A DNA stretch of 64,000 nt from an uncultured Gammaproteobacteria bacterium (GCA_964551925.1 CAZKFA010000001.1:16281-80280), one strand, 5' to 3'; shown: positions 13,545 to 63,246, counted from the first letter of the stretch. The notes: a model not told the origin generated them from the letters alone. Numbers and translations: made by a program.

Positions 13545-13569
13545 TTTACTATACACTGTATAGTAAAGA
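13545..13569. repeat. 25-bp perfect palindrome CTTTACTATACACTGTATAGTAAAG (copy of the iterated TATACA-S-TGTATA element), exactly filling the gap between the convergent sucD and secA stop codons
   Basis: Read directly: the reverse complement equals itself; flanked by the stops at 13543 and 13570. Confidence 0.8.
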
Positions 13570-16422
13570 CTAGGCTGCTTTTGCTCTAACTTCTATCTGT
13601 GAGTGATAGAGTAATATGATTGTATTTCTTTTGATGTCAGCGAGCAGCTCGTCGAACATATCAAAGCTCTCTCTCTTATATTCAATTAATGGATCTTTTT
13701 GAGCATAGCCACGTAAGTGTATACCTTCCTTGAGTGAGTCCATCCCATGCAAGTGACTGATCCACTTCGTATCTATGACGTGGAGCATGATTTGTCTTTC
13801 GGCTTCACGTATAACATCAAGTCCTAATTGCTTTTCTTTTGTAGAATACAGATCGATAGTGCATTTGCGTGCCTGTGTTAGTAAGGAGTCGAAGCCAGAT
13901 TCACTAAAGCTTTCAATTGGATCTATAGACCGAATTACATCTTCTGTGAAATCAGCTTTGAGCTGTCCAAAGATTTGTGCAATTGGACTTAACCCCTGCG
14001 AATCATCATACCAAAGTTCTGTTGGTAAATTTGGGCTAATATGGGTGTAAATAATATGGTCAACATGCTCTTGAATCATTTTGACAATATTCTCATGTAT
14101 GTCGCTTCCTTCAAGGATTTCACGACGCTCTCTGTAAATAACTTCTCTTTGTGTGTTAATAACATCGTCATATTGAAGTACATGCTTTCTCATATCAAAA
14201 TGATAGGCTTCAACTTTTTTCTGAGAGTTATTGATGGCACTGCTAATGATGCTAGCTTCGATTGGTAAGTCCTCATCAGCATTAAGCATATTCATTATGC
14301 CAACTACTTTCTCGCCACCAAAAATCCTCATTAAATTGTCTTCTAGAGATAGATAGAATCTTGCCTGTCCAGGATCTCCTTGGCGAGCGCATCTACCACA
14401 TAGCTGATTATCAATTCTACGGCTTTCATGTCTTTCACTACCAATAACATATAGTCCACCAGCCTTAAGAACCTCTTGCTGAGCCTCTTTGTCGACTACA
14501 TTGTAGTTTGGGTTGTTAGGATCACTTGATAAGTGACCACCTAGAATAATATCAGTGCCTCGTCCTGCCATATTAGTAGCAATTGTGATTGCGCCAGGTC
14601 TTCCAGCTTCTCGAATGATCTGAGCTTCTTTTTGGTGATGTTTTGCGTTTAATACATTAAATTTCAAGCCATTACGAATAGCTTCCAGTAGATTAATTGA
14701 GTTCATGACACTGTCAATAGCAAACACAAGATCTTCTTTTGGTTTGCTTTCTGTTTCATAGATGACATCAACCATTTTTTGGAAGTCAATTGCTTTGAGG
14801 TTAGCCGGTCTTTCTAGTGTTTTGCTGAATTCCTGTAGTAACGCTTTGGTCTTTGCATTGTTTGTTAATAGTTTAGTAAGGCGTTTGATCCTAAACTCTA
14901 ACACGCCTAATGTGTGAACTGGGCGTGAAAGTATCTCAGCAATTGCTTCTGACTTCTCTATGCTCGTAGTACCAATAAGTACCGGCATGCCATTATTATG
15001 TGCGGCAATGATGTCTTCAGCGATTGCGATGAATTTAATCTTTTCATTTTTGTAAACAATATCATTGAGGATTGTGCGTGCATTAGATTTGTTTGTAGGT
15101 ATCTGTAGAACACCAAGGTTATAAATTTTCTCAAATTCTTCAGCTTCAGTGAGAGCAGTACCAGTCATCCCCGAGAGCTTAGGATATAGTCTGAATAAGT
15201 TTTGGAAGGTAATGCTTGCCATTGTTAGAGTCTCTTCTTGAATAGGGACTCCTTCTTTGGCTTCGATGGCTTGATGTAAGCCATCACTCCAGCGACGCCC
15301 TTCCATTAAGCGTCCAGTAAATTCATCGACAATAACAATTTCATTGCGGTTAGACTTCTCACCTTTCTTGACTATATAGTCAACGTCTTTTGTAAATAAT
15401 TCTTTAGCTCTTAGAGCTTGTATTAAATGCTGTGCTAGATTGAGTTCTGGGTCCCATAGGTCTTTGACTTTGAGGATTTGTTCGGCGGCTTTAATGCCAG
15501 AATCATTGAGGATTACGTTCTTTGCTTTCTCGTCAACGTAATAATGAGCATGTTCTGCAATATCTTTCTCTGATTCCCCCTTTTGTAATTGTTTTGCAAC
15601 TTTGTTCATGCTTAGGTATATTTCTTTGCGTCTAGCATCAGGCATGCCGCTGATAATCAAAGGAGTCCTAGCTTCATCTATAAGAATACTGTCTACCTCG
15701 TCTATGATTGCCATGTAGTAAGGACGTTGAACGCAATCCTGAAGGCTTGTCTCCATATTGTCTCTTAAATAATCAAAACCAAATTCGTTGTTTGTACCAT
15801 AAGTTATGTCACAAGCATATGCTTCTCTACGATCTTCATGTTCCATTCCAGAAATAATTAAGCCAACACTAAGTCCTAAGAATTTATATAGCTTGCCCAT
15901 CCATTCAGAATCTCGACGTGCGAGGTAATCATTGACAGTGATCACGTGTACTCCGCGACCAGTAAGGGCATTAAGATAGGCTGGTAGAGTACAAACCAAG
16001 GTCTTACCCTCACCTGTCTGCATTTCAGCGATGCCGCCTCTGTGTAATTGAATACCACCAATTAATTGCACATCAAAATGGCGCATCTGTAAAACTCGTT
16101 TAGCGGCTTCTCTACATACAGCAAAGGCTTCTGGTAAAATCTGATTAAGAATTTGAGCAAGAACTCTATCATGAGAAGTTCTTAATTGCCCAGGCATTTT
16201 TGCAACATCATCTTTGATGAGCTTGATATATTCGACAGCAGTAAGTGACTCTTTAATCCTGTTTTTGAATTCAGTTGTTTTGGCTTGCAATTCAGCATCA
16301 GTAAGAGCCGCAATTTCTTGCTCTAGTTTGTTAACTAAATCAACAGTGGGTCTTATCTCTACTAATAGTTTCTCGTTGGGATCTCCCCAAAACGCCTTCA
16401 ATACTTGCTGTAACATCAGCAA
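13570..16422 (-). CDS. secA: Preprotein translocase ATPase SecA
   Basis: 950 aa; DEAD-like motor, 'TNMAGRGTDI', preprotein cross-linking and helical scaffold domains; unmistakable SecA. Confidence 0.95.
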   Translation of the reverse strand: MLMLQQVLKAFWGDPNEKLLVEIRPTVDLVNKLEQEIAALTDAELQAKTTEFKNRIKESLTAVEYIKLIKDDVAKMPGQLRTSHDRVLAQILNQILPEAFAVCREAAKRVLQMRHFDVQLIGGIQLHRGGIAEMQTGEGKTLVCTLPAYLNALTGRGVHVITVNDYLARRDSEWMGKLYKFLGLSVGLIISGMEHEDRREAYACDITYGTNNEFGFDYLRDNMETSLQDCVQRPYYMAIIDEVDSILIDEARTPLIISGMPDARRKEIYLSMNKVAKQLQKGESEKDIAEHAHYYVDEKAKNVILNDSGIKAAEQILKVKDLWDPELNLAQHLIQALRAKELFTKDVDYIVKKGEKSNRNEIVIVDEFTGRLMEGRRWSDGLHQAIEAKEGVPIQEETLTMASITFQNLFRLYPKLSGMTGTALTEAEEFEKIYNLGVLQIPTNKSNARTILNDIVYKNEKIKFIAIAEDIIAAHNNGMPVLIGTTSIEKSEAIAEILSRPVHTLGVLEFRIKRLTKLLTNNAKTKALLQEFSKTLERPANLKAIDFQKMVDVIYETESKPKEDLVFAIDSVMNSINLLEAIRNGLKFNVLNAKHHQKEAQIIREAGRPGAITIATNMAGRGTDIILGGHLSSDPNNPNYNVVDKEAQQEVLKAGGLYVIGSERHESRRIDNQLCGRCARQGDPGQARFYLSLEDNLMRIFGGEKVVGIMNMLNADEDLPIEASIISSAINNSQKKVEAYHFDMRKHVLQYDDVINTQREVIYRERREILEGSDIHENIVKMIQEHVDHIIYTHISPNLPTELWYDDSQGLSPIAQIFGQLKADFTEDVIRSIDPIESFSESGFDSLLTQARKCTIDLYSTKEKQLGLDVIREAERQIMLHVIDTKWISHLHGMDSLKEGIHLRGYAQKDPLIEYKRESFDMFDELLADIKRNTIILLYHSQIEVRAKAA

Positions 16423-16425
16423 TAA

Positions 16426-17292
16426 TTATACTTCATAACCTTTCATAAGTACTCTAAGTTTTTGTAAAACTTTCATGTGTAATTGAGAGGCTCTTGATTC
16501 TGAGACACCAAGAACGTCACCAATTTCTCTAAATGTAAGCTTTTGATAGTGGTATAAAGCGACAACTAAGCGGTCCCTTTGGCTTAAGTTAGAAATGGCT
16601 TGTTTTAGTTTTTCCTTCAATAATTGACGTTCAGTATAGTCCTCTTGAGACTCACTGTTGCTAGCAAGGTTATCTAGTAAAGAAATTTTTGAATCTTCAA
16701 AAGGTCGAGTTGCTTCAGTTGAGTCTAGTGAGAATACAATTGAGTTTGCCTCTCGTTTCATTGTGCGCAAATCTTCAGAGTCGATATCTAGGACTTTTTT
16801 AACTTCAGCATCAGTAGGAGCACGTCCTAATTGTTTTTCTAGAATAATTACGGCCTCGTTGAATTTCTTAACTCTTGTTCTTCCTGTTCTGCTGAGGAAA
16901 TCTCTTGATCTTAGGAAGTCTAGAATCTCACCTCGAACACGATTAATTGCAAAAGTCTCAAATGAGCATTTTTGTTGAGGATCAAATCTGTCAACGGCTT
17001 CAATTAAACCAATAGTTCCATAACCTAATAAATCTTCTCTATCAAAGTCAGCAGTTTCAATATGTGGAAATCTACCAATAACCCAATTAACTATAAAAGC
17101 GTATCTTTTGATTAGAGTCTCGCGTAAATGAGCTGGACGGTTTTGAGCGTTATATTTATTCCAGAGCCTGATAGATTCTTCTTTGTCTCTTAGTTTGGCA
17201 TCGCTGCGAGATAAGTCTCTAGACTGTTCTGTCAAGCTTTTGCTTTTAGCTGATTGAATCACCGAATTTTCTTTTGCCTTAGAGTCTTTCAT
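16426..17292 (-). CDS. Sigma-70 family sigma factor, FliA/WhiG/SigF (group 3) type
   Basis: 288 aa; region 2 'FAINRVRGEILDFLR', region 4 HTH 'LTFREIGDVLGVSESRASQLH'. Confidence 0.8.
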   Translation of the reverse strand: MKDSKAKENSVIQSAKSKSLTEQSRDLSRSDAKLRDKEESIRLWNKYNAQNRPAHLRETLIKRYAFIVNWVIGRFPHIETADFDREDLLGYGTIGLIEAVDRFDPQQKCSFETFAINRVRGEILDFLRSRDFLSRTGRTRVKKFNEAVIILEKQLGRAPTDAEVKKVLDIDSEDLRTMKREANSIVFSLDSTEATRPFEDSKISLLDNLASNSESQEDYTERQLLKEKLKQAISNLSQRDRLVVALYHYQKLTFREIGDVLGVSESRASQLHMKVLQKLRVLMKGYEV

Positions 17293-22033: not shown

Positions 22034-23146
22034 TCAATTCGTTTCTGCCTTACTATACACTGTATAATAATCTGCTACTAACATTAAAGATCCAGTGATA
22101 ATAACTAAATCATCAGCTATTCTAAGTCTCTCAGCTAACTCAAAGGCAGAACTACTGTTCTTGGTTGCATGGATATTAACTAGCCCTTGTATCTGAAGCT
22201 CTGAGATCAAATCCTTGGCTTTAGTTGAGCGGTTGGAATTTAATTCTGTGCAAATAACTATATCTCTATCCTTCTTAATGAGATTATGAAATAAAGCGGC
22301 TAAGCATCGTTTGTAGTCTTTATCTAGAAAGGCAAGAACAAAGATTTTTCTTGATTGTTTGTTTAAGGATTGTAGATATTGATTTAACTTAAACATACCA
22401 GGCTCATTGTGAGCGCCGTCAATCAGAATATTGGAGTGATAAACATAGCGCCCTTTGTATCTGTCGGGGAATTGTTCTAAGGCTCTGCTACTAAGTTCCT
22501 TCCCAACCTCTATTCCAGAGAGCTTTGTGAAGATATCTGTTGCTAGTAAAAAATTTTCTCCGCTACTTGAGTTAGGGTTGTTGTTATTAGGTTTCCCTTC
22601 AAAATGTACTACCCCCTCTCGTTTGATAGCTTCCTTTTCTTTACGAATTAGTTCTATAGTATTACCGAGATATTGCATATGATCTAATCCAATATTGGTA
22701 ATAACTGTGGCTAATCGATTTCTACTTGCAATCGTGTTCGTGGCATCCCATCTGCCGCCCATACCTACTTCAAGAATGGCAATGTCAATCTTATGGCGTT
22801 TGAAATATTCAAAAGCGATTATTGTTTGTAATTCAAACTCTGTTAGTGACAGTGCTTGAAGCGCCGGGTTCTGTGATAGCTCCTGAGATAACTTAATTAG
22901 CTCTTCATCACTAATATCTTGTCCATTAATGGCAAATCTCTCGTTGAGCTTGATTAAGTGTGGGCTACTGTACTTGCCTATTTTATAATTTAGTCCTGAG
23001 TTTAGATACAGTAACTCCAGGAATGTACAAGTAGAACCTTTGCCATTAGTACCAGCAACAATTATTGACTGATAGCAATTCTGTGGACTGCCTAATAATT
23101 CAAGAGCCTTTGAGACAGCGTCAAGACTAGGATTGATCTGAGTCAT
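22034..23146 (-). CDS. folC: Bifunctional folylpolyglutamate synthase / dihydrofolate synthase
   Basis: 'IIVAGTNGKGSTCTFLE' P-loop of the Mur-ligase family; 370 aa. Confidence 0.85.
   Translation of the reverse strand: MTQINPSLDAVSKALELLGSPQNCYQSIIVAGTNGKGSTCTFLELLYLNSGLNYKIGKYSSPHLIKLNERFAINGQDISDEELIKLSQELSQNPALQALSLTEFELQTIIAFEYFKRHKIDIAILEVGMGGRWDATNTIASRNRLATVITNIGLDHMQYLGNTIELIRKEKEAIKREGVVHFEGKPNNNNPNSSSGENFLLATDIFTKLSGIEVGKELSSRALEQFPDRYKGRYVYHSNILIDGAHNEPGMFKLNQYLQSLNKQSRKIFVLAFLDKDYKRCLAALFHNLIKKDRDIVICTELNSNRSTKAKDLISELQIQGLVNIHATKNSSSAFELAERLRIADDLVIITGSLMLVADYYTVYSKAETN
22050..22070. repeat. Iterated palindrome copy TTACTATACACTGTATAATAA in the folC-stop / hemN-start gap
   Basis: Read directly; one mismatch from perfect dyad symmetry. 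Confidence 0.7.
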
Positions 23147-28169: not shown

Positions 28170-28204
28170 AAAGAATTAATTTTACAGTGTAAAATTAATT
28201 CTTT
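28170..28204. repeat. 35-bp perfect AT-rich palindrome AAAGAATTAATTTTACAGTGTAAAATTAATTCTTT overlapping the stop codon of the 28203-28943 gene; shares the ACAGTGT core of the iterated palindrome
   Basis: Read directly; 17-bp arms around a central G. Confidence 0.75.
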
Positions 28205-28943
28205 AGAAGTCTAAGTCCGAATCCCCATCATCTTCAAAGAAATTCTGATTTAAGTCAGGAATATTATCCCAAGGGACTCCCTCTTCTGGATCTTGAACTT
28301 CTGGCGTTTGTGGCGCATTTTGAGGGACTTTCTCGTATTTGGCGTAAGGATTATCAGTTGCCGGTTGATAATTTTGTGGAATTTTGGGGATAATGAAGTT
28401 AGGCTCTTGATAGAGTTTGGCGTCTGCGCGTAAATCTATAGGACAAGTGGCGTTATCTTTTTCCAATAATAGGCTAATGAAATGTGCTGATTTAATGTAG
28501 GTATTGCTGATGACCTCGTTGCGATTAAAATAGTAGATTTTGCGCACGAAATGTTTATCTTCGTGAATACGATCATAAGCATTAGCTGGATCGAAATCAG
28601 CAGCCATATTGTCGAGGCGACTTTCTTTTATGGTCTCAGCTTTGTAAGAGGTAAATTTTCCAACTTCGTTTATCCAATGTATTTCTTTTACTGTAGGTCC
28701 AAGTAGTTCATCTTGTTGTAACATTACTGCTACAAATACCTCACCATAAGGGATGTAAGTTACAACTTCGATTTGTGATTTGCCCCAAGGGCAATCGACC
28801 ATAGATTGAATGGTAAATTCTTCATTGATATGTAATGGTTGTTTAGTTTCTGATTCGGATTTTTTCTTTGACTTAAATATAGATAGAGCTTGCGCTGGGT
28901 TTGAGAAATATAAAAGAGTAGCCAATAGCAAAATACGTAGCAT
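28203..28943 (-). CDS. Hypothetical secreted protein (signal peptide, acidic C-terminus)
   Basis: N-terminus 'MLRILLLATLLYFSNPAQALS' signal peptide; C-terminus 'FEDDGDSDLDF'. Confidence 0.4.
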   Translation of the reverse strand: MLRILLLATLLYFSNPAQALSIFKSKKKSESETKQPLHINEEFTIQSMVDCPWGKSQIEVVTYIPYGEVFVAVMLQQDELLGPTVKEIHWINEVGKFTSYKAETIKESRLDNMAADFDPANAYDRIHEDKHFVRKIYYFNRNEVISNTYIKSAHFISLLLEKDNATCPIDLRADAKLYQEPNFIIPKIPQNYQPATDNPYAKYEKVPQNAPQTPEVQDPEEGVPWDNIPDLNQNFFEDDGDSDLDF

Positions 28944-48050: not shown

Positions 48051-48096
48051 TGAATGAAAATACCTAAGATTATTGTGCTCTTAGAGAGAAGGTTTA

Positions 48097-48117: not shown

Positions 48118-48192
48118 AGATATCGTAAATTTTTAATATCAGTTACCATTTGACCCTCTTGATTATAGTTAGCAAATAGTACAATCCCTTCT

Positions 48193-48441
48193 GTGAGCTT
48201 ACCAAGAGCAAATTATCAAAAAATGAGAGCTGAGATATATAAGGTTATAGGCTTTGGACTCTGGACTCCATTCGGTTCAATGATGGTAAATCTGGTTATT
48301 AGTCAGCCCAGTAATTTTGACATCAAATTTTTTGTGTATCTATTAGCAGCATCAATTTTACTCCCGCTTGGCGGACGTTTTCTTGACATTGCGGTAACAA
48401 TAATATACGATACGGATGAGGAGAGATCAGATGCAAGTTGA
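48193..48441 (+). CDS. Small membrane protein (2 TM), paralog of 57259-57501
   Basis: GTG start (or ATG at 48223); '...AEIYKVIGFGLWTPFGSMMVNLV' vs paralog 'AEVLKTIGFILATPFGINALNLL'. Confidence 0.5.
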   Translation: MSLPRANYQKMRAEIYKVIGFGLWTPFGSMMVNLVISQPSNFDIKFFVYLLAASILLPLGGRFLDIAVTIIYDTDEERSDAS

Positions 48442-48562
48442 TAATGAATCTATAAATTGGATTGCGATTATTTGCGTAGCCTTATTACCTGCCCCATTAG
48501 CTTTGTTGTTTATGCATAACTTTCGCGACAAAACTCTAGAGAAGAGTAAGAAGCTTAATTAA
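48431..48562 (+). CDS. Very small membrane peptide (43 aa), start overlapping the stop of 48193-48441 (ATGcaagtTGA); analogous to 57124-57290
   Basis: GAGGAG 8 nt upstream; 'MQVDNESINWIAIICVALLPAPLALLFMHNFRDKTLEKSKKLN' has one TM; found by manual translation, since it is below the ORF-track length cutoff. Confidence 0.3.
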   Translation: MQVDNESINWIAIICVALLPAPLALLFMHNFRDKTLEKSKKLN

Positions 48563-51648: not shown

Positions 51649-51680
51649 AAAAAAAAAGACCCTAATTTAGGGTCTTTTTT
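51649..51680. terminator. Bidirectional intrinsic terminator: A9 - GACCCTAATTTAGGGTC - T7
   Basis: Read directly; 48 nt after the stop of the 999-aa gene (minus strand). Confidence 0.8.
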
Positions 51681-51702: not shown

Positions 51703-54702
51703 TTATGCAACTGTTGTAGGACTTGCTTCTGAACTTGGTCTAGGGCTAGTTTCGAGAGTTGTTTTACCCATTCTTTGATTGATTTCCATGGTGGCACTTT
51801 TCAAAGCAGCTAAGAAGCCAGTGTGTTCATCAGCTTCTGGAATCGCAGCGACTCGCTTTTGGAAGTCAGCTACAGCTTCAACTTTCTCAAGTCCAAGGAA
51901 TCTCATTGTCATAGTCAAACCATTTTTTACGGAATCTTTTAATTTGGAGAGAATCTTTTTAACAGCAGAAGAGTTCTTCTCTCTATCGTATAGATCCCAG
52001 ACATCAGTGAGTTCTGAGCTTTCAGGAAAAGCTTTAACTTCATCTTCTAGTCTATTAATTTCGTTGGCATGCTTAATATCAAAACTCCGTTTTGTAGCTC
52101 TGATATCGGTTAATACTTTTGAACTTAGGCTCGTGACTAGAGTGTTAGCACTGTTTAGCAAATCCTTCAGCTTTTGATCTAATTTCTCAGGTTTCTTTTC
52201 ATTAGTTTCTTTGAGCTTAAGAAGAGTTTCGGTGATTAAGCGAACTCTGCCTAGTTGTACCTTGGCTCTATCGAAAGGAGGTAGTGAATTGTCTTTGCTT
52301 GTATCCAAAAGCTCAGAGTCTTCCGTACTGAATTTAATTAGTCCATCAAAAGCTTTACCCTCTTTTAAAGTAGTATGGAAATGTTCCAGAGCTGTTGATT
52401 GAGTCTGACCCCAATTCTGTAACAAAGTTATAAAGCCATTATAATCTTGTGTTCCACCAATAGAGAGTGCTTTAACACTACTTGTTACAGCATCTATTGC
52501 TGCATTAGTTGCTGTTAACTTGGCTGTTTCTAATTCTTGTTCAGCTTTAAGTTTTGCAGATTCAATTTCTGCTCTACAAACTTCAGCTTGTGCCTTAAAT
52601 CCATTTCTGAATTCATCATCAAACTGACCATTCTCGTCAAGCATCGAATCTACTAGATATTTAGCAGCTGTTGCGTTGACGGTGCGAGCTTTGGTTAGAA
52701 TTGGTTTAATGACTGAGTTTGCCATAAGTTCAACAAACTTAGCTTCACTTTTAGCTTCTTCTTTAGCTTTTTTAACTTTGTCGGTCGCTAGAATTTTGAG
52801 GCTCTCAGCTATTTTTTTAGAGTCATCGTCTTTTACTGTCAAAATCCAAGTGCTTTGTATTTTGAGAACTTCAGCAAGTTTCTCAGCAGCAGAGAGAGTA
52901 GTCTGATCAATATCTTTAACTGCTTTTGCCGTTGTTAACTGTTTGTCTCTTTCAGCATTTGCTTTATCAGTTAGATTTTGACGAATTGCATTGACATAGT
53001 CTGCAGTAGTTGCTTCTTTTTGTGCGGCAGTAACTGCTGCATCAATAGTATTTTTCGCGGCTGTTGCTTCAGTAAGTTTGGTATTAGCTTCATCAAGCTT
53101 AGCCTGTGCCTCAAGAATAGCTTTATCTGCATTTGCAATAGCGGTTTGCTCGGATGCTGTTAGATTATTTGGATCGGCTGGGGCTGCTAGGTTTGCTTTA
53201 GCTTGATCGGCAGCTTGTTTAGCTTGATCGGCAGCTTGTTGAGCTGTAGTTGCTGCATCAAAAGCCGCTTGGGTAGTAGTTTGCTCTGCTACTAACGCAT
53301 CCACATTTGCTTTAGCGGGAGCTGCTGTTTTCCAATCTACTGCTGTAGTAGCGTTACCATTTGGACCTATAGCTTCTCTTATTTTTTCAACTTGTTCTTT
53401 ATTTAAGGTTGGATTTAATCCTGAGCCTGCTGGTAAGTACCTGCTGATATCAAGAGTATTACCTGCTGCTGGGATTGATAGTATGGCTTCTAAGTTTCTC
53501 TTGCCAATTTCTACAGGGTTAGCCGTATTATTTGCAAGAATTGCTTTTGATTGTTTGACAACATCATCATAGAAGGATTGTTCAAGCTTAGTATTCCCTG
53601 AGATGAAAGAAGTACTAATCTTTACCGCTGTACCACCTGCTTTGCCAGAGTTTCTGATAGCAGTACTTAGAGAACCTTCAAGGTTTTTGTATTTGAGTGC
53701 ATCAGCTTCTTTCTGAGGTCCTATCATAGCAGCAGTATTTAGGAAATCTGTCAGAGCATAAGCTGCTTCTTTGGCTTCTTCTTCGCTAGAGGCTTTGAAT
53801 AAAGTTTCTAATTTTTCAAGAAAGTCAGCTAGAAAAGTTTTTTGTGCTGCAGTTTTAGCATGCTTTTCAATAGCCTTGGCTCCGTCTTTAAGGACATCGA
53901 CTGAGATCTTTTCGAATATCTCACCTTTTAATTCTGTAACTTGTGATTTGATTGATTCAAGCCCATCTCCTAGTGTTTCTAGTGGTCTTTGAGCAAGCGA
54001 TTGAACTTTGAGATAAACGTGATTGGCAAGAGCTTTGCCAACAGCACCATAACTTCTTGATAGTTTACCAATGAAACCAGTCTTTGGATTTGATAATTTC
54101 TCCAAACCTTGAGATCTAATTAAATCAACAACATTGCGCAAAGATGTTTCTGGATTGGCATCTAAGATACCAAGTATCATATCTTTTTGTTCGGGTTCTA
54201 TTCCACTTGACGGGAAGGAATCAATTGCTGTGACCAATAAGTCTCTAACATCTCCTTGAATAGGTTTGAGGTATTCACCATTACTATCTTCGTCTCGCAT
54301 TCTTAAGATTGCAAATAAATCTTCCAAGACTTTTGCTTGTTTGTAAACTATAGCGTTGCCTTTAGGGCTAGCTGATTTTAAGTTGCCAGAAAGACCTGCT
54401 AAGATCTCCTCATAAGCTCTTTTTGCTTTAGGTCCAAATTCTACTTCTACTCCACCTGTTAATTCTTTGAATTTATCATCAGGATCAGTTTCGGTTTTAT
54501 CTTTGCTTCTATATTCTTCTGTATTTTTGAGTTCATCTGCTGCTTTGAATTTCTCAGCAAGTGCGTCAATAGGGTCTTCTTTTGATTTGCCACCTGGCTT
54601 GGTTGCTCGGAGGTAAGCTGCCACATCGGCTTTAGTTAATTTAGTAGGAGCTTCGGTTGCTCTTTCTATTAAAGGTTTTGTTTCTATTACTTTTACTACC
54701 AT
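51703..54702 (-). CDS. Large hypothetical protein (999 aa) with a long Ala/Lys/Glu/Thr-rich predicted coiled-coil central region
   Basis: Long ORF; '...AQKEATTADYVNAIRQNLTDKANAERDKQL...' heptad-like; no signal peptide. Confidence 0.55.
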   Translation of the reverse strand: MVVKVIETKPLIERATEAPTKLTKADVAAYLRATKPGGKSKEDPIDALAEKFKAADELKNTEEYRSKDKTETDPDDKFKELTGGVEVEFGPKAKRAYEEILAGLSGNLKSASPKGNAIVYKQAKVLEDLFAILRMRDEDSNGEYLKPIQGDVRDLLVTAIDSFPSSGIEPEQKDMILGILDANPETSLRNVVDLIRSQGLEKLSNPKTGFIGKLSRSYGAVGKALANHVYLKVQSLAQRPLETLGDGLESIKSQVTELKGEIFEKISVDVLKDGAKAIEKHAKTAAQKTFLADFLEKLETLFKASSEEEAKEAAYALTDFLNTAAMIGPQKEADALKYKNLEGSLSTAIRNSGKAGGTAVKISTSFISGNTKLEQSFYDDVVKQSKAILANNTANPVEIGKRNLEAILSIPAAGNTLDISRYLPAGSGLNPTLNKEQVEKIREAIGPNGNATTAVDWKTAAPAKANVDALVAEQTTTQAAFDAATTAQQAADQAKQAADQAKANLAAPADPNNLTASEQTAIANADKAILEAQAKLDEANTKLTEATAAKNTIDAAVTAAQKEATTADYVNAIRQNLTDKANAERDKQLTTAKAVKDIDQTTLSAAEKLAEVLKIQSTWILTVKDDDSKKIAESLKILATDKVKKAKEEAKSEAKFVELMANSVIKPILTKARTVNATAAKYLVDSMLDENGQFDDEFRNGFKAQAEVCRAEIESAKLKAEQELETAKLTATNAAIDAVTSSVKALSIGGTQDYNGFITLLQNWGQTQSTALEHFHTTLKEGKAFDGLIKFSTEDSELLDTSKDNSLPPFDRAKVQLGRVRLITETLLKLKETNEKKPEKLDQKLKDLLNSANTLVTSLSSKVLTDIRATKRSFDIKHANEINRLEDEVKAFPESSELTDVWDLYDREKNSSAVKKILSKLKDSVKNGLTMTMRFLGLEKVEAVADFQKRVAAIPEADEHTGFLAALKSATMEINQRMGKTTLETSPRPSSEASPTTVA

Positions 54703-55019: not shown

Positions 55020-55901
55020 ATGACTACAAGGTACGTCTACGGTCCAGTGCATTCCTGGCGCTCAGGCACTTCTCTGGGTATAGACCCAATTGGTAGTACT
55101 TCTACTTGTTCTTTTAATTGTGCTTATTGTCAGCTTGGTAAGATCCAGAATATTACTCAAGAGATCAAGGAGTATGTGCGAACTGCTGATGTCATCAGGG
55201 ATCTACGTGAATTAGAAACGGCTGGACAATTTAATTATGAAAATCTAGATGTGATAACTTTTGCAGGTTCTGGAGAACCCACTCTAGCAGCGAATCTTGG
55301 CGAGATGATCCTGGAGATTCGTAAACTTTATGCTGGTCGTTCTAAGCGAGTACCGATATCTATTCTTACTAACGCCACGATGTTAGAACATCAATCTGTG
55401 CGTGATGCTTTATTGCAGGCTGATCTCATCTCATTGAAGCTAGATGCCGCTAATGATGAGGTTCTCAGGAGTATTAACCAGCCTGCTTCCGGTATTACTA
55501 TACAGTGTATAGTAAGTGGGATTAAATTACTCCAGAAGTCTTGTGTCATTGCGAGCGAAGCAAAGCAATCCAATTCTAGATTACAACTACAAATTATGTT
55601 TATGCCAAAGTTTATCAAAGACACTCAGTATCTTAATGAGATGATTGCTTTAATTAAAGATCTCGGTATGCGTTACATTCAGATTAATACCCCAACACGT
55701 GCTAAACCTCTCTCTAAGACCGGGGAGTATTGGCTTGATACTCGTGGTAATCATTATGGACCAGGTTCTAAAGTAGTGAAGCCGGAATTTATTGAATTCA
55801 CTGAGCTTCCTGTGATTAGCGAAGCAGATGCTTATATGCTAGAAGATAAATTGTTAGCAGCTGTTCCAGAGTTAGAGATAGTCAATGTTTATAAACGCTA
55901 G
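55020..55901 (+). CDS. Radical SAM enzyme of an uncharacterised subfamily
   Basis: 'YGPVHSWRSGTSLGIDPIGSTSTCSFNCAYCQLG' gives the CxxxCxxC cluster near the N-terminus; 293 aa; its stop abuts the next gene's start. Confidence 0.7.
   Translation: MTTRYVYGPVHSWRSGTSLGIDPIGSTSTCSFNCAYCQLGKIQNITQEIKEYVRTADVIRDLRELETAGQFNYENLDVITFAGSGEPTLAANLGEMILEIRKLYAGRSKRVPISILTNATMLEHQSVRDALLQADLISLKLDAANDEVLRSINQPASGITIQCIVSGIKLLQKSCVIASEAKQSNSRLQLQIMFMPKFIKDTQYLNEMIALIKDLGMRYIQINTPTRAKPLSKTGEYWLDTRGNHYGPGSKVVKPEFIEFTELPVISEADAYMLEDKLLAAVPELEIVNVYKR
55495..55515. repeat. 21-bp perfect iterated palindrome TTACTATACAGTGTATAGTAA inside the radical SAM coding sequence (encodes ..IQCIV..)
   Basis: Read directly; in-frame, no stop introduced. 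Confidence 0.8.
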
Positions 55902-56663
55902 ATGGAAATTAACCCTATTATAAATTTGAATCTTACTGAATTGCCTAATACTAAACAAGGCTTGTTGGATATCTACTCAAACTATCTTGCAGAGAGGATT
56001 ACAGATTATAAGCAAATTGGAGTTGTTGAGTTGAGCTTAGCTTCTAGTGCCCTACTTGAAATATTACCAGAGATTTATAATATCCTCAGGAACTATAATC
56101 TTCAAGTATCTTTTGGTAGTATTGTTGATCTTGACTTGGTTCTAGCCTTGCAGGATCTCAAGCTACCAGCAGGGATTAGGATCTTTGCACCAGCTTTTGA
56201 TGAAGATGTTTTTCGCTTTGTGATAGAACAAGATTGGCACTATATACCGGGAGTGGCTTGTGTAGAGGACTTCAAGGAAGTCTTGTCTTGGATGCCTAAT
56301 CTTATGAGTGTGAAGGTTTTTCCAGTTTATAATTTGTCACTTCTTAAAACACTTGCAACACCATATCCAGAATTGCGTTTGCCAGCAAATATTACTAGGA
56401 CCAGTTCAGTCACTGGCTTACCCATCTCTAGTCCGCGCCAATATCAAAAAATTCGTCAACGTTTTTTGCATGAACTAGATTTAGAGTTATCCTTCCAAAC
56501 AAGGCAGTTTGATATTCCAACTTTGCTTGCAACAATTAAACAACAGTCTCCTGCTACTAAGCTTATAGCTACTGGGTTTGCTGGTATCGAGCCTGATGAA
56601 GAGTTGCTAGCAAGTTGGGGCTTTGATGCAGCTGCGACAAGATTAGGGAGCCTGCGTGGCTGA
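55902..56663 (+). CDS. Hypothetical protein with weak resemblance to KDPG/KHG aldolase (Eda) TIM-barrel fold
   Basis: 'SVKVFPVYNLSLLKTLATPYPELRLP' vs Eda '[30 protein letters not shown]'; the catalytic-residue context is not clearly conserved. Confidence 0.35.
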   Translation: MEINPIINLNLTELPNTKQGLLDIYSNYLAERITDYKQIGVVELSLASSALLEILPEIYNILRNYNLQVSFGSIVDLDLVLALQDLKLPAGIRIFAPAFDEDVFRFVIEQDWHYIPGVACVEDFKEVLSWMPNLMSVKVFPVYNLSLLKTLATPYPELRLPANITRTSSVTGLPISSPRQYQKIRQRFLHELDLELSFQTRQFDIPTLLATIKQQSPATKLIATGFAGIEPDEELLASWGFDAAATRLGSLRG

Positions 56664-57120
56664 TAATTTTATCAATATAGTTCTCTATCAACCAGAGATC
56701 CCACAAAACACTGGCAACATAGCAAGGCTTTGTGTTTCTAATGATCTGCATCTGCATCTTATTGAGCCACTCGGTTTCAAGATGACTGATAAGTACCTTA
56801 AGCGTTCTGGTTTGGATTATTTTCAATATCTTAATTATACGGTGTATAGTAATTGGCAGCACTTCTTAGAAGGCAATCAAGGAGCTAATCTCTGGTACTT
56901 AACCACTAAGGCTACTAAATTATATTGGGATGTAAATTATACGATGGGTGATTATTTGGTTTTTGGACCAGAGACTAAGGGGCTACCAAAGGCAATCATG
57001 GCGCTTAATTCAGAGTACTTGATTAAAGTGCCTATGAGTTCAGAGAATGCACGCTCACTCAATCTAGCAAGTACTGTACAAACAGCTTACTATGAGGCTT
57101 ATAGGCAGCTCCAAGTCTGA
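56656..57120 (+). CDS. trmL: tRNA (cytidine34/uridine34-2'-O)-methyltransferase, SPOUT family
   Basis: Aligns end to end with E. coli TrmL: 'NIVLYQPEIPQNTGNIARLC', 'GDYLVFGPETKGLP', 'LNLASTVQTAYYEAYRQL'. Confidence 0.8.
   Translation: MADNFINIVLYQPEIPQNTGNIARLCVSNDLHLHLIEPLGFKMTDKYLKRSGLDYFQYLNYTVYSNWQHFLEGNQGANLWYLTTKATKLYWDVNYTMGDYLVFGPETKGLPKAIMALNSEYLIKVPMSSENARSLNLASTVQTAYYEAYRQLQV
56834..56852. repeat. Iterated palindrome copy ATTATACGGTGTATAGTAA inside the trmL coding sequence (variable loop 'NYTVYSNW')
   Basis: Read directly; 19-mer identical to the reverse complement of the central 19-mer of the copy at 48097-48117. Confidence 0.75.
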
Positions 57121-57123
57121 GCT

Positions 57124-57290
57124 TATTTTTTCTCAACTTTCTGAAATAGTTCGGGATAGCGTTCACTGGGCAAGGTCCAAAATCTACTTTTGGTAATGCC
57201 AAAAGCGACGCTTGCTAACATAGCACCAGCAAATAACGGACCAAAGACATCAGCCCAGTTAGCGCAAATGTAATCTATTAATTTCTCCAT
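57124..57290 (-). CDS. Small membrane peptide (55 aa) whose start overlaps the last 30 nt of 57259-57501; analog of 48431-48562
   Basis: GGAGGA 5 nt upstream; 'MEKLIDYICANWADVFGPLFAGAMLASVAFGITKSRFW...' (NW plus TM as in the other copy); found by manual translation. Confidence 0.3.
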
Positions 57291-57501
57291 CTATTTCCTC
57301 CATTAAGCCAAGAGAGCGGTTTACAAGTACGTAAGCGGGTAGTAGTAAAGCACTAGATATAATCCAACCAAGAGCCAGATTAACAGTGGAGTGAAAACCT
57401 GTCAATAGATTCAAAGCATTGATTCCAAATGGAGTAGCCAATATAAACCCAATGGTTTTGAGAACTTCTGCTTTATGCTTAAATTGCTGAAAACTTTTCA
57501 C
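57259..57501 (-). CDS. Small membrane protein (2 TM), paralog of 48193-48441
   Basis: 'MKSFQQFKHKAEVLKTIGFILATPFGINALNLLTGF...' shares the N-terminal motif with the other copy; transcribed divergently from the 1367-aa gene. Confidence 0.5.
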   Translation of the reverse strand: MKSFQQFKHKAEVLKTIGFILATPFGINALNLLTGFHSTVNLALGWIISSALLLPAYVLVNRSLGLMEEIDGEINRLHLR

Positions 57502-57654: not shown

Positions 57655-60600
57655 ATGCAAATAACTCAACACAGAATGGTACGGGAAGCTGCTGATGGAA
57701 ATGGAGCAGAGAAAGATCTTGGAACGATCCATGTTTCAGATCAAGTAATTGGTGATAGCTTGATGCAAGCACTCTCTCCTTTTAATAAAGATTTTTTTTC
57801 TGGAGCTCTTAATCCTGCTAACGCCTATTGGTCTGGAGGCGCTGTTGATAAAGGTGATTATGTGTACAAGCTTGATTTAACTGAGGCTGATAAGAAGAGT
57901 GGTGGTAAATTCGGAATAGTATTTCAAGATCAGTTTGCTCATAATCAATCTATTGCATTTGTGTTTTCTATTGTTGACGGCAAGTTAATTATTTCAAAAA
58001 GTAAATTAGTTGATGATGCTAGTGGTCCTGACTTTGGTGGGGCTAAGGACTCATATCAAGATACTTATGTTGCAATATCTCATGCTCTTCATGGTAGTGA
58101 TAGCGAGAAAACAAAATATACTTTGAATTTTGAAGATGGAATTGATGCAGAAGAAGAGAAAATAATTAAATATATTACGGCTTATGCAAATCTGGATGTT
58201 AAAGCTAATCCACATCTTAAAAATATAATATTAGAATCTAGAGCTTTGATTAAAGACCACTTGGATACTGCGATGCTGAAGGTTAAACAAGATCCAAGCA
58301 AAATCTCTGAGTACATTGATTTGGTCAAATCTTATAAAAATTCTGGTTTATCTAAATTAAGTGAACAAACAGTTCGACAAAATGGACAGTCTAGTAATTA
58401 TAATACTCACTTAAATTTAGTTGATAATATTTTATCTACAGAACCAACGCAATTCGGTGCATTAGTAAGATTTCATCCGTATAGTTTAGATAGAGTTAAG
58501 ACTGTTGATGATCTTGTAGTCAGAGAGCTTTTGATAAGAGCTTTAAGAACAGGTAATTTGTCAAGTGGAAATTTGGACGGATTGGATACTGCCTTGAAGA
58601 CTGTGGTTGATAAGTATTTAGATATTGCTGCTGCAGGTATGAACGTAGCTGATAGAGCTACTAAGCAAGCTGAGCTTCTTAAACAAGTGAAAGATTATAT
58701 AGAGCCATATAAGAATAAGACTGCTAGTGATTTTACGGAACTTATAAATAATCCTGATAGTTTTAATAGGTTCTTCGCGTTTTTGCAAGTCTCGCAAAAC
58801 GACAAGATAGAAGCCAATCTTAAGCTTCTAACACAAGAGCTTACTGAGCTATTAAGAAAAGAAACAAATTTAACAAAAAAAGATCAGCTTGTTGATAAGT
58901 ACAAGAAACTTCTTGTTCAATATGGAGCCTTTTTTGCTGGATCAGGAACTGCTGATATTGATAAATTGGCAATTGATTCAACTAAGTTAAGCGACTCATC
59001 AAAACACCAACAAATATTCAATGGCTTTATGACTCTCATTAGAACAAAGCAAGAGGCGCGTATTGAGCATAAGGTTAATTCCGATAACTATAAGAATATT
59101 GGAGCTAACATAAGTTCAATGTTAGGACACACTCTAGTTGCTGGAGATGAGCTGAGCTTTGAATATGATGCTGCCACTAAAACATTCTACGTAGCTGCTA
59201 AGCATGCTGTAGCATCAGGCAGTACGAAAGCTTCTGACAAACTTAAATACACTATGCTTGCTGTGAAAGTTAATGATGATGGTACTTTGACTGCAGTGAG
59301 GTCTGAAGAGGGTGTTACTAGGTCTTATAGCGATCTCAAAAAAGAATTAATTACTAAGTTAGCTGATCCGAATGCTAAGAAAAGTAATGTTAGTCACACA
59401 GACTTCGTTAAACTATATACAACTATTGATCATACAGAGGTAAATGAATTAATAACTAGCCTTGTTGATAAAATTACCGTAGCTAATGTTAGTGATTCAA
59501 AAATTACTGCTTTGATATCAGCTTTAAGCTCTGCTAAAGACCAAGAGAAGGTTAAGATCCTTATGCAGAGTAAGTTTGATGCTTTAATCAAGGATTGTAT
59601 TTTATCTAATCCGCCAACTAATGACCAGAAAACTAAACTTACTAATATTTGGAATAAGTTTAAGGCATTTTATCCAGCTACAGCTCCGGAAACTTTGAAG
59701 AAAGTATTTAAGGATTTGATTGATACTGTGCATGCTGATGTTGTTGCTGTTGTTGCTGTTGGCACGGTTGCCCCTGTTGATAATTCTGCAAAGAGAGCTC
59801 TGTTAACGACAATGTTAGACACAAAATTTGCCAAAGTTGCTGATGTGAATATTTCTACAATTATAAATGCGATTATGGCTGGTGAAGCCACAACTAACCC
59901 AACTACTCCAAGTCCTAGCCCGAGCGTGGCACCTACTGTAGATCTAACTACTTTAACTGCTTCCACCCCAACAAATATTATTGCCAATATGAATACCGCT
60001 CTAGAAGGGATTTACAATCAAGGTGTCGCCAATCAGCCAGAGCGTTTGAGATATCTAGCTAGAGAGTTGGCGTTTGATACTTTAGATGCGCATGAAAGAA
60101 CCGAGTTAGCTAATATATTGAGATTCCATGCTAAGGATGATGAGAAGCGTAATATAGCGGGGTTAGTAGATGAATATTTAACTGCTTTAGATAAAGTAGA
60201 TACTAATGAAACTAGGTTAGGAGTATCGTTTGAGAAGGCTAATGACAAAGTTTCTTTTGCTGCTGATGTAACTAAGGAGATAGAATTATTTAATACATTA
60301 CTTAGTAAACTTTCTGATTCTACTTGTGATGATCCACTTTCTAGTTATTTTAATTTCAATGCGCAAGAATTGCGTCAATTGACAACTAAAGCTGCTCCTT
60401 TGCCGCGGTCAGTAATTACTAAGCTTGATACAATCAAGTCAGAAACTGGCATTGATATACGCCAAGCATTTAAAGATTCCAAAATTGATATCAATTCTGG
60501 TGAGGGCAAAGCTCTACTACAAAGATTATTTGAGGCTGCTAATAAGACTATTAGGAGGGAAGCAGCACCAGAGATCCAAGTGGCGGCAGGTGAAACTCTT

Positions 60601-61758
60601 GGTGGTCCACAACTTGCTTTAGAACTACTTTATATGACTAAATACAACCCATTAGTCAGAGCACAAGCTGTAAACACCAGAAAGTTTCTTGATTTCTTTA
60701 ATAACCCGGATGCTATTAATGGACCGCAATTTGCAAGTGCTATTGACGCCGAGAGACAAATACACTTAGCTCAAGTATTGATGATGTACCAATCGCCAAT
60801 TGAAGAACATATGACTAAACCCACTCTGGATGCTGCAAGGACAATCTATGAGCAGATTCCAGGCGAGGTGTTTAATTACAAACAGACTCCACAATTCTTT
60901 ATGCATGAGAATGGACAACCAGTTCTTAAGAAGATATATAAGCTTGGAGATAAGGCTAATCTGGTGATGCCATTAGCGGCTAATATACGAGTCTCTGGTA
61001 AAGAAGCTGATAAGAATTTCTCAGTTGAAGGAGATAACTTAGCTCTCAAGGCTATTCTTGAAGCCACTGGTGTGATTCCAGTTGGTGATGAAGAAAAATT
61101 CAGTAATTTTATTCAAGGATTTGCAACTAAGAACGCTGAAGGAGAATATAGCTTTGATAGGCCGGCTCAAGAACGTTTGGCAACTGAGCTTGCTAGAATA
61201 TTACCTTCTTTCGTTGAGACTTATAATCGCTTCAGTAGTAAAGAACCAGCTAATGATAATGAAAGAACTCAATTCGCTAAAGCAAAGACTGTTATAGACA
61301 AGCTTCTAGAGGTACAAGGGTCTTCTACTATATTGAGCGTTGAGACTGGCTATATCAAGATTAGTTTTGATGAATTCTTAGATAGTTTTACAAACTTTGT
61401 AACTAATATGAAGGCTTATAGAGATGTTAATGAGGCTGATATTCCAGATCCATCAATATGGTCTCAAGGTTTGCCAGGAGGCTACAATACTTCTGGAACT
61501 CCAATACCATTCAATGACATCTATGCGGCTTGGAGAGATAATAATAGAAACTTTAGTTTTAATAAATATATTTCCATGCAACAAGTTGCAACTGATCTAC
61601 CTATGAATAATCCTTGGTATCGCTACGCCACAGCTACTCCCGAGGAACAAGGTCAAATGAATCAAGATATTAATGCTCATCTTCGAGCTCAGACTGGTTA
61701 CTCAACATGGCGCCAGGCTAATACTCAGCCAGTGGCAAATAGATCTTTTCACGTTTAA
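57655..61758 (+). CDS. Very large hypothetical protein (1367 aa), orphan; contains a Pro/Thr-rich linker (~aa 740-770: TTNPTTPSPSPSVAPTVDLTTLTASTPTN)
   Basis: Long ORF, soluble, multi-domain appearance; no motif recognised. Confidence 0.55.
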   Translation: MQITQHRMVREAADGNGAEKDLGTIHVSDQVIGDSLMQALSPFNKDFFSGALNPANAYWSGGAVDKGDYVYKLDLTEADKKSGGKFGIVFQDQFAHNQSIAFVFSIVDGKLIISKSKLVDDASGPDFGGAKDSYQDTYVAISHALHGSDSEKTKYTLNFEDGIDAEEEKIIKYITAYANLDVKANPHLKNIILESRALIKDHLDTAMLKVKQDPSKISEYIDLVKSYKNSGLSKLSEQTVRQNGQSSNYNTHLNLVDNILSTEPTQFGALVRFHPYSLDRVKTVDDLVVRELLIRALRTGNLSSGNLDGLDTALKTVVDKYLDIAAAGMNVADRATKQAELLKQVKDYIEPYKNKTASDFTELINNPDSFNRFFAFLQVSQNDKIEANLKLLTQELTELLRKETNLTKKDQLVDKYKKLLVQYGAFFAGSGTADIDKLAIDSTKLSDSSKHQQIFNGFMTLIRTKQEARIEHKVNSDNYKNIGANISSMLGHTLVAGDELSFEYDAATKTFYVAAKHAVASGSTKASDKLKYTMLAVKVNDDGTLTAVRSEEGVTRSYSDLKKELITKLADPNAKKSNVSHTDFVKLYTTIDHTEVNELITSLVDKITVANVSDSKITALISALSSAKDQEKVKILMQSKFDALIKDCILSNPPTNDQKTKLTNIWNKFKAFYPATAPETLKKVFKDLIDTVHADVVAVVAVGTVAPVDNSAKRALLTTMLDTKFAKVADVNISTIINAIMAGEATTNPTTPSPSPSVAPTVDLTTLTASTPTNIIANMNTALEGIYNQGVANQPERLRYLARELAFDTLDAHERTELANILRFHAKDDEKRNIAGLVDEYLTALDKVDTNETRLGVSFEKANDKVSFAADVTKEIELFNTLLSKLSDSTCDDPLSSYFNFNAQELRQLTTKAAPLPRSVITKLDTIKSETGIDIRQAFKDSKIDINSGEGKALLQRLFEAANKTIRREAAPEIQVAAGETLGGPQLALELLYMTKYNPLVRAQAVNTRKFLDFFNNPDAINGPQFASAIDAERQIHLAQVLMMYQSPIEEHMTKPTLDAARTIYEQIPGEVFNYKQTPQFFMHENGQPVLKKIYKLGDKANLVMPLAANIRVSGKEADKNFSVEGDNLALKAILEATGVIPVGDEEKFSNFIQGFATKNAEGEYSFDRPAQERLATELARILPSFVETYNRFSSKEPANDNERTQFAKAKTVIDKLLEVQGSSTILSVETGYIKISFDEFLDSFTNFVTNMKAYRDVNEADIPDPSIWSQGLPGGYNTSGTPIPFNDIYAAWRDNNRNFSFNKYISMQQVATDLPMNNPWYRYATATPEEQGQMNQDINAHLRAQTGYSTWRQANTQPVANRSFHV

Positions 61759-62583: not shown

Positions 62584-62730
62584 TGTTGTCGCTCTGATCA
62601 TTGTGGTAGTCTTCCGGCAGCTCCGGTCCCTGTCTTTTATCGCTTCGCTCAAAAGCAGGGACATGGCTCCGCTGCTCCTTGCTTACTAAGCTCATAGTCA
62701 AGATCTCTACCAGAATGATCAGAGCAACAA
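62584..62730. mobile_element. Second MITE-like / structured element: imperfect ~24-bp inverted repeats (TTGTTG(TCG)CTCTGATCATTGTGGTAG ... CTACCAGAATGATCAGAGCAACAA) enclosing about 96 bp of GC-richer sequence with internal stems
   Basis: Read directly; 1 mismatch plus a 3-nt indel between the arms; no coding potential (the 83-aa minus-strand ORF there is judged spurious). Confidence 0.4.
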
Positions 62731-62775
62731 TGATGGAGCTGCTCATAATGAAGGGTCTCAAGTTATAATATACTA

Positions 62776-63246
62776 ATGAGAAATCTGATTATTATACAGT
62801 GTATAGTATTTGCTTTAAGTTCTTGTGCTAAATCTTATCCACAGCAGTTGAGTTTTAGAGTGGAAGATCGCAATATCGCTGATGACAGTATTACAGAGTA
62901 TCGTTTTTTTGAGAATGGTTTAGTTAATAGAACACAGACCTACTCAGCCAAAGAATTGTTCTCTAGTAAGTTTATTGAACTTGATAAAGAACAAACTGAG
63001 CAAGTGAAAGCAATTCTAGTTGCTCTGCAGAAATTAGACTATATAAATGACTTCCCTTGGAAAGAAGATTATTATAAGCGTGGCAATGTGATGAAGATTG
63101 AGTTTCCTGATGAAGTTGAGCTGAAATTTTTTGCTAATAAACCTAGTAAAACAATTAATATACCGCAAACATTTTATTTCTATACTGGACACGAGAAGCA
63201 GCCGCAGGTTTTTGTGGAATTGCAACAATTGATAAATCATTTATAA
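62776..63246 (+). CDS. Hypothetical lipoprotein
   Basis: 'MRNLIIIQCIVFALSSCAK' signal peptide with LSSC lipobox. Confidence 0.5.
   Translation: MRNLIIIQCIVFALSSCAKSYPQQLSFRVEDRNIADDSITEYRFFENGLVNRTQTYSAKELFSSKFIELDKEQTEQVKAILVALQKLDYINDFPWKEDYYKRGNVMKIEFPDEVELKFFANKPSKTINIPQTFYFYTGHEKQPQVFVELQQLINHL
62790..62808. repeat. Iterated palindrome copy ATTATACAGTGTATAGTA inside the lipoprotein signal-peptide coding region (again encodes IQCIV)
   Basis: Read directly. Confidence 0.75.

Follow-up and report, generated by a model that had tools for sequence, protein, structure and literature searches.

An iterated 21-bp palindrome within and between genes of an uncultured melainabacterium, as a candidate recognition site for a dimeric DNA-binding protein

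Why should one long palindrome recur along a stretch of bacterial DNA, in the gaps between genes as well as in the middle of reading frames, and what might read it? The stretch in question comprises 64,000 nucleotides of an assembly deposited as an uncultured Gammaproteobacteria bacterium (GCA_964551925.1, CAZKFA010000001.1:16281-80280); it was analysed whole, is called the window below, and all its coordinates are counted from its first letter. An earlier note on this DNA had described a highly iterated palindrome of about 19 bp with at least eight copies. We find that the unit is 21 bp long and that there are nine copies: the eight positions originally given are right to within a few bases, and a ninth, centred at 39424 within rsmE, had been missed. 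We tentatively favour, at somewhat less than an even chance, the explanation that these nine copies are selected recognition sites in duplex DNA for one putative homodimeric DNA-binding protein.

The 13-mer core, TATACASTGTATA, occurs exactly six times in the window against 0.01 expected, an expectation that the earlier note had also given. The core is over-represented about 600-fold, none of 100 dinucleotide-preserving shuffles reached six occurrences, and the 11 matches with up to two mismatches compare with 2.0 expected. Chance is excluded as the source of the copies. Reading of the flanks and a position matrix extended the unit to 21 bp, TTAYTATACA-S-TGTATARTAA (TTAYTATACASTGTATARTAA), with an information content of about 30 bits. 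Nine copies, centred at 13556, 22060, 39424, 45185, 48043, 48108, 55505, 56842 and 62799, match this 21-mer with no mismatch (three copies), one (four copies) or two (two copies). There is no site with three mismatches in the window and a single one with four (at 28187; 0.07 expected), and from five mismatches on the counts are those expected from a Markov model. The family has a sharp boundary and no decayed tail. Across the nine copies 15 of the 21 positions are invariant, the frequent variants are transitions only, at ±7 (C/T and G/A) and ±1, and the centre base is always C or G. The position matrix carries no information beyond ±11. These uninformative flanks reject local duplication, which the earlier note had envisaged as a possible origin; its observation that 56834-56852 is the reverse complement of the core of 48097-48117 is correct.

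Since the arms are never found singly, the unit is the dyad and not the arm: the decamer TGTATARTAA occurs 12 times inside palindromes and not once outside them (0.36 expected in the window). Wherever the two arms differ, the change is on one side: position ±7 is 'heterozygous' in seven copies and a compensated T/A pair in none, and a pair count on ten aligned copies (the nine of the window and one from the relative L143, described below) found no two-sided, compensatory change, a count whose power is low with ten sequences. It is thus the sequence that is conserved on both arms, not the pairing, which argues for duplex DNA read by a symmetric dimer rather than for a hairpin. The density is about one copy per 7-8 kb, or one per seven genes. 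Another 12.5 kb of flanking DNA (7.5 kb upstream and 5 kb downstream) held no strong copy, and the first 21 kb of the roughly 76 kb read contain none at all (p = 0.08), as a uniform density of about 0.12 per kb would allow.

Four copies are intergenic. Copy 1 (TTACTATACACTGTATAGTAA, 13546-13566, no mismatch) lies between the convergent stops of sucD (12665-13543, plus strand) and secA (13570-16422, minus strand), where its arms extend into a 25-bp perfect palindrome (13544-13568) that nearly fills the 26-bp gap. Copy 4 (TTATTATACACTGTATAGTGA, 45175-45195, one mismatch) is located in the 137-bp divergent region between thyX and a DUF1640/CCDC90-like gene, its centre 42 bp from the thyX start (45143, minus strand) and 96 bp from the other (45281, plus strand). 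Copies 5 (TTACTATACAGTGTATAATGA, 48033-48053) and 6 (TTACTATACACCGTATAATAA, 48098-48118), with one mismatch each and 65 bp apart from centre to centre, share a 199-bp divergent region: the centre of copy 5 is 50 bp from the start (47993, minus strand) of a 627-amino-acid open reading frame (ORF) of unknown function, and copy 6 lies 85 bp upstream of the start at 48193 (plus strand) of a putative membrane ORF of 82 amino acids. The earlier note had both copies of this pair form the same arm sequence; this is true of the copy at 48043, which reads TGTATAAT on the plus strand, while the copy at 48108 reads CGTATAAT.

The other five copies are inside ORFs, three of them in mid-gene. Copy 2 (TTACTATACACTGTATAATAA, 22050-22070, no mismatch), previously placed between folC and hemN, forms the last codons of the folC ORF as called (minus strand; D-Y-Y-T-V-Y-S-K), in a tail of about 11 residues that is poorly conserved and missing from most homologs; its centre is 72 bp upstream of the start, at 21988, of a hemN-like radical-SAM gene. 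Copy 3 (TTATTATACACCGTATAGTAG, 39414-39434, two mismatches) is in the middle of rsmE (38926-39663, plus strand; S-Y-Y-T-P-Y-S-S), where the protein is poorly conserved among solved structures. Copy 7 (TTACTATACAGTGTATAGTAA, 55495-55515, no mismatch) lies within another radical-SAM gene (55020-55901, plus strand; I-T-I-Q-C-I-V-S), and copy 8 (TAATTATACGGTGTATAGTAA, 56832-56852, two mismatches) within trmL (56656-57120, plus strand; N-Y-T-V-Y-S-N). Copy 9 (TTATTATACAGTGTATAGTAT, 62789-62809, one mismatch) belongs to the signal peptide of a lipoprotein ORF (62776-63246, plus strand; MRNLIIIQCIVFALSSC), its centre 23 bp after the ATG. As a separate observation on copy 2, the folC tail DYYTVYSKAETN (22034-22070) aligns with a similar tail, EYYKILEDATLTA, in one homolog of 50% identity (P0256), and the tail may therefore be older than the motif.

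Four of the nine copies fall in non-coding DNA, which accounts for 5.2% of the window (p = 7e-4), and five fall in the interval from -100 to +25 around start codons, which accounts for 9.5% (p = 7e-4). Because of the enrichment at start codons, a DNA-binding protein with a role in transcription stays among the possibilities. A -10-like hexamer, TATAAT or TATAGT, is present in each arm; the TG of the arm directly abuts it, so that no canonical TGnTATAAT extended -10 element results. A consensus promoter scan of 44900-48500 gave 12 promoter-like matches, one of which uses an arm. Arms as free-standing promoter elements were rejected, because none occurs outside the palindromes and none forms a canonical extended -10. 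That the palindrome is not a simple operator of a single gene, as the earlier note had argued, is borne out by the three mid-gene copies and the one in the 26-bp convergent gap.

How did the copies come to lie within genes? One frame of the palindrome is closed by TAG and TAA, and no copy uses it; all five ORF copies sit in the two stop-free frames, read as YYT[VP]YS in three copies and as TIQCIV in two, the latter being the radical-SAM and lipoprotein copies whose common IQCIV peptide had already been noticed. In-frame tolerance, claimed before for three genes, extends in this way to five. An alignment of the radical-SAM protein with 15 homologs shows no gap at the site of copy 7 (ITIQCIVS against VTMESIVS), and the TrmL alignment shows no indel at that of copy 8. 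The absence of indels in both genes indicates that the copies arose in situ, by point changes. In the relative L144, at 63% DNA identity, the codons of copy 7 read GTGACAATGGAAAGTATTGTGAGC and match the motif in 14 of 24 bases, so about ten substitutions would be enough to make the site, no more than the average divergence of the gene. The TrmL proteins of the relatives L149 and L150 carry the same or nearly the same peptide, (N/K)YTVYSNW, in other codons and without the DNA motif, so what is specified in the window organism is the DNA and not the peptide. By the same token the peptide fails as a proxy for the DNA motif in TrmL. Perfect 21-bp sites in ORFs are expected about zero times by chance.

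The host, judged by its best protein hits, belongs to the Melainabacteria/Vampirovibrionia, non-photosynthetic Cyanobacteriota. Identical proteins were found in no more than a few ENA and Logan assemblies, whose DNA is 99.1-100% identical; these strains show no difference in 315 motif bases and are too similar for a polymorphism test to have power. Among 185,579 GTDB species representatives the exact 21-mer gave five unrelated single hits, none of them with more than one exact copy. With its centre relaxed, the 21-mer gave 67 loci in JGI metagenomes, each with one exact match and none enriched like the window. The 17-mer core AYTATACASTGTATART was found in 59 IMG/VR contigs, one copy in each; a viral origin was rejected, the single copies being no more than chance by our judgement, which was made without a computed expectation. 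The motif is restricted to one narrow Melainabacteria lineage. In the literature the 13-mer core appeared in no paper in a relevant context (there was one irrelevant match), and no paper on Melainabacteria repeats was found.

Two further observations were made in these searches. The 17-mer ATTATACASTGTATAAT recurs in viral contigs with family-specific flanks (IMG/VR L082, L096, L102, L104, L109, L111, L114 and others), which are ATAGATTATACACTGTATAATCC-like in at least seven contigs and TGGTATTATACACTGTATAATACTT in four. Each contig has a single copy, and nothing links the contigs to the window organism. The recurrence suggests that phages conserve a promoter or operator built on the same AT-rich dyad. 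Two Ga0214473 contigs of 23% GC (L069, 1103-1150; L075, 13-60) carry a related 21-mer palindrome as two direct tandem copies with 21-bp spacing, and come from an unrelated, very AT-rich metagenome organism.

Comparison with orthologs, as the earlier note had proposed, showed what becomes of the sites over time. In L143, a relative from the dataset SRR23086380, the radical-SAM gene has diverged to 74% amino-acid and 67% DNA identity, and the site of copy 7 is kept as TATTACTATACAGCGTATAGTAAGT, with 24 of 25 bases matching. It lies within the longest run (12) of identical synonymous codons of that comparison, in which 49% of the codons at conserved residues are identical overall. This one site suggests constraint across lineages. 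Another contig of the same dataset, L149, lacks the trmL site, which indicates that sites turn over; in the closest relative, therefore, one of two comparable intragenic sites is retained (radical-SAM yes, trmL no). The more distant L144, L145 and L150 (about 57-66% amino-acid identity in the radical-SAM protein; L145 overlaps L144) have no copy in about 38 kb of largely syntenic DNA, and L151 matches the motif at the trmL site only in part, over 17 bp.

The one variant contig for thyX, L152 (1-2298, SRR7369912), has an unrelated upstream region without the motif and is hence uninformative on the thyX promoter. Against window 44256-45143 its thyX is 94% identical from 45050 to the 3′ end, and its first 30 or so codons and the upstream DNA, with a histidine-kinase gene, are unrelated to the window. 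The alignment implies a putative recombination or rearrangement breakpoint about 135 bp from copy 4. The L152 upstream region has a different, 19-bp AT palindrome, ATTATAATAATATTATAAT.

These results can be brought together as follows. We infer a protein of which each subunit would read a 10-bp half-site, TTAYTATACA, the two half-sites being inverted around one obligatory C:G pair. Selection on point substitutions would create and keep sites where sequence constraint is low, that is, between genes, in a C-terminal tail or a signal peptide, in variable loops of proteins, and in stretches whose amino acids already fit one of the two open frames. At five sites, 42-96 bp upstream or 23 bp downstream of a start, the bound dimer would block the access of RNA polymerase and so repress transcription. 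Neither the three mid-gene copies nor the one in the convergent gap is incidental, because about zero would be expected by chance, and this suggests that the reader profits from sites irrespective of promoters. The protein may thus also need such sites in the manner of a nucleoid-associated or chromosome-organising factor; alternatively, it could be a global repressor whose intragenic sites are anchors or roadblocks.

Several points weigh against a dedicated dimeric reader. Usual transcription-factor regulons have graded weaker sites, and the motif has none; it is, at about one copy in every 7-8 kb, five to ten times as dense as matS, NBS and SBS; and the neighbours of the sites (thyX, the hemN-like gene, the lipoprotein gene and unknown ORFs) share no obvious function. 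Proximity to promoters is confounded with low sequence constraint. The apparent constraint at copy 7 has a competitor in a run of 11 identical codons elsewhere in the radical-SAM gene. ORF and Pfam annotation of the window and its 12.5-kb flanks (about 76 kb) found no gene for a methyltransferase, restriction enzyme, transposase or RAYT, or helix-turn-helix regulator. Of the cognate genes that the earlier note had thought worth seeking, the methyltransferase and the restriction enzyme are thus missing there, and a DNA-binding gene is present; it is the only one, encodes a sigma factor (16426-17292), and leaves no candidate for the reader. Finally, the counts cover about 76 kb of the genome. 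The sites may serve a global repressor or a chromosome organiser, or they may be a self-marker of the kind known from uptake sequences.

Architectural sites offer one parallel to sites for such a reader. The sites of the pairs ParB-parS, Noc-NBS, SlmA-SBS and MatP-matS are high-information dyads that are read by dimers, scattered irrespective of gene boundaries, often in ORFs, and accompanied by few degenerate copies; matS is an odd-centred 13-bp palindrome. The motif shares their high information, their independence of gene boundaries and their scarcity of degenerate copies. It differs from them in its unrelated sequence and its five- to tenfold higher density, and it is no parS: the parS consensus TGTTNCACGTGNAACA gave one match with three mismatches in the window against 2.2 expected. 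A bolder version of the dimer hypothesis, which we hold to be possible though not probable, is that the palindrome is the own long 'genome signature' of a narrow non-photosynthetic Cyanobacteriota lineage, present by extrapolation in a few hundred copies per genome, written by selection or drive, with a dedicated protein that reads it to organise the chromosome or to discriminate self from foreign DNA. If this were true, the motif would be a high-information counterpart of HIP1 or of uptake signal sequences, and its length of 21 bp would let the reader be fished out directly.

Among the alternatives to a dimer site, a marker of self-DNA survives best, although we think it unlikely. Like the uptake signal sequences (USS) of Pasteurellaceae, the DNA uptake sequences (DUS) of Neisseriaceae, or HIP1 in transformation, the palindrome would be preferred by a competence, transfer or recombination machine and spread by molecular drive wherever coding permits. 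The origin of the copies in situ, without indels, in permissive frames, at weakly constrained residues and with recurrent peptides (here YYT[VP]YS and TIQCIV) is the pattern of USS in ORFs, which are likewise lineage-specific and rich in information (PMC2817400). Confinement to one lineage, with at most one exact 21-mer in any GTDB species representative, and the turnover of sites between close lineages fit as well, and HIP1 is reported in a preprint to improve natural transformation of a cyanobacterium (10.1101/2024.09.10.611283). Against this, known uptake sequences are asymmetric and have a monomeric receptor, whereas the motif is a strict dyad with equally conserved arms, and the tail of imperfect copies that drive normally leaves, and that USS and DUS have, is absent. 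By the sizes of the two genomes, uptake sequences stand at about one per 1.2 kb in Haemophilus influenzae and Neisseria meningitidis, five to six times denser than the one per 7-8 kb found here. The counts for both species are published (PMC2817400). The window shows no competence genes.

An ordinary regulon-specific transcription factor, whose operator this would be and for which the intragenic copies would be incidental, seems to us improbable. A 21-bp dyad has the typical size of an operator, and five of nine copies are promoter-proximal and overlap -10-like hexamers. Perfect 21-bp sites in ORFs, however, are not incidental when about zero are expected, one copy sits between convergent stops, and the neighbouring genes are without a common function. 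A LexA/SOS box was rejected, as there is no motif upstream of recA (which lies 16 kb upstream of the window, in L136).

The earlier note had likened the palindrome to HIP1, and part of this likeness holds. Both occur in the phylum Cyanobacteriota, and HIP1 too is a hugely over-represented palindrome that occurs within and between ORFs without indels and is apparently kept by selection (PMC5861425, PMC4390886); the copies here arose in ORFs without indels, a diverged relative has kept at least one of the sites, and the function of either motif is probably exerted at the DNA level. What does not hold is identity with HIP1 itself. The HIP1 sequence GCGATCGC has no copy in the 64 kb; the motif measures 21 bp and not 8, has an odd centre, no embedded GATC or CGATCG methylase target and no known methylase link, and belongs to one lineage where HIP1 is phylum-wide. 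HIP1 is typically over-represented 15- to 300-fold, often with more than one copy per gene, as compared with about 600-fold (for the 13-mer) at about one copy per seven genes; the motif, at one per 7-8 kb against about one per gene, is roughly ten times sparser. A mechanism of the HIP1 type, in which an orphan DNA methyltransferase or a repair bias at the centre CASTG would account for the abundance and the function would lie in nucleoid structure, strikes us as very doubtful. The centre is always C:G, which speaks for it, but repair or mutation bias cannot specify 21 positions, CASTG is broken in three of the nine copies (CACCG/CGGTG), and the window is without a methyltransferase gene. Nor is there a skew of CASTG from restriction or methylation, which was rejected on 107 occurrences observed against 83-100 expected in the window.

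A hairpin acting in RNA, to terminate or stabilise the transcript or direct its processing, deserves little credence. Copy 1 does form a 12-bp stem of -15 kcal/mol (z = -3.9), and the arm transitions of all four informative intragenic copies give G-U and not C-A pairs on the sense strand. The latter pattern has p = 1/16, though, and is explained equally well by tyrosine codon preference (TAT). Copy 1 alone is clearly stable; copy 7 reaches -11.8 kcal/mol, and six others of the nine stay between -3 and -7.6 kcal/mol, five of these with z near 0, like shuffles. No U-run follows any of the nine, there is no covariation, and every stem position is kept in sequence and not in pairing alone. Rfam families and tRNAs gave no match. 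As intrinsic terminators the copies were rejected, since the stems have only two G-C pairs, none of the nine has a U-run, and one copy alone is at gene ends.

The 35-bp perfect palindrome at 28170-28204 (minus strand; AAAGAATTAATTTTACAGTGTAAAATTAATTCTTT), which the earlier note had regarded as related, is of another kind and its membership is doubtful. It has four mismatches in 21 positions and only the centre TACAGTGTA in common with the motif, and it forms a minus-strand hairpin of -14 kcal/mol followed by the U-rich UUUUGUGUG. It looks like an ordinary intrinsic terminator, to judge by this arrangement, after the ORF at 28203-28943 and upstream of rpsJ.

The small dispersed repeats (SDRs) of 21-27 nt in Nostoc and Anabaena resemble the motif in size class, phylum and their very short, dispersed form. 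Elhai et al. (2008) reportedly judged SDRs to be mobile, interrupting sequences that are continuous in relatives, whereas the orthologous sequences here are equal in length. REPs and REPINs share with the motif the form of short dispersed palindromes, a copy density similar per kb to that of E. coli REPs, and enrichment between genes; two copies lie 65 bp apart, and the equally good preservation of all would be compatible with a recent burst. Still, a very small mobile palindrome of either class, spread by a trans-acting transposase on a single-strand hairpin, is the least credible explanation and the REP-like nature that the earlier note had considered is not supported, because five of nine copies are in ORFs with no length change against orthologs in the two genes tested, there are no target-site duplications, conserved flanks, compensatory stem changes, or RAYT or transposase genes in the roughly 76 kb, where REPs are imperfect hairpins, organised as doublets, inserted next to RAYT genes and almost wholly extragenic (PMC3116915), and one site common to the lineage at 67% DNA identity is no recent burst.

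The surroundings of the copies have some features of their own. Four large ORFs without a Pfam match (46110-47993, 49021-51603, 51703-54702 and 57655-61758; 627, 860, 999 and 1367 amino acids) are not mutual paralogs, and large ORFs without a Pfam match stand at the corresponding positions of L144; four of the nine palindrome copies lie in or beside this block. Two putative membrane ORFs of 80-82 amino acids (48193-48441, plus strand, and 57259-57501, minus strand) are the sole paralog pair of the window, with 37% identity. Each adjoins one of the large unknown ORFs; the pair of copies 5 and 6 precedes the first, and no copy is upstream of the second. The DUF1640/CCDC90-like ORF downstream of copy 4 (45281-45682) contains three tandem repeats of the 11-residue LKRDMKELEAG. 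An AbiEii toxin gene with a partner ORF adjoins the radical-SAM gene downstream in L144 (10891-12345) and upstream in L150 (606-1989), and the window has no insertion there. Two further palindromes are distinct from the family. At 42526-42580 a 55-bp perfect palindrome, AGACTTGTCCCCAAATGGCTTATAACGCAGTTATAAGCCATTTGGGGACAAGTCT, in which 26-bp arms enclose a loop of 3 nt, occupies the divergent gap between a DHH-family gene (41449-42507, minus strand) and mazG (42631-43464, plus strand); no other hairpin of the window comes near it in length, and it is unrelated to the 21-mer. At 51652-51680 a 29-bp palindrome, AAAAAAGACCCTAATTTAGGGTCTTTTTT, between two large minus-strand ORFs, resembles a bidirectional intrinsic terminator.

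The motif is outside every family tested and is new among dispersed, over-represented recognition motifs. Over-represented short motifs like HIP1, USS/DUS and REP belong to the most poorly understood features of bacterial genomes, and what HIP1 does has been an open question for about 30 years. The palindrome is a much more specific relative of such motifs in the sister group of photosynthetic cyanobacteria, and a tractable one: it carries about 30 bits, evolves in place in conserved genes, and is absent from the largely syntenic DNA of near relatives. It also holds a warning for annotation, as recurrent peptides such as YYTVYS and TIQCIV, and C-terminal extensions of ORFs, can be by-products of a signal at the DNA level. 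If the protein that reads it were named, this would show what motifs of this kind are for: regulation, chromosome architecture or DNA exchange.

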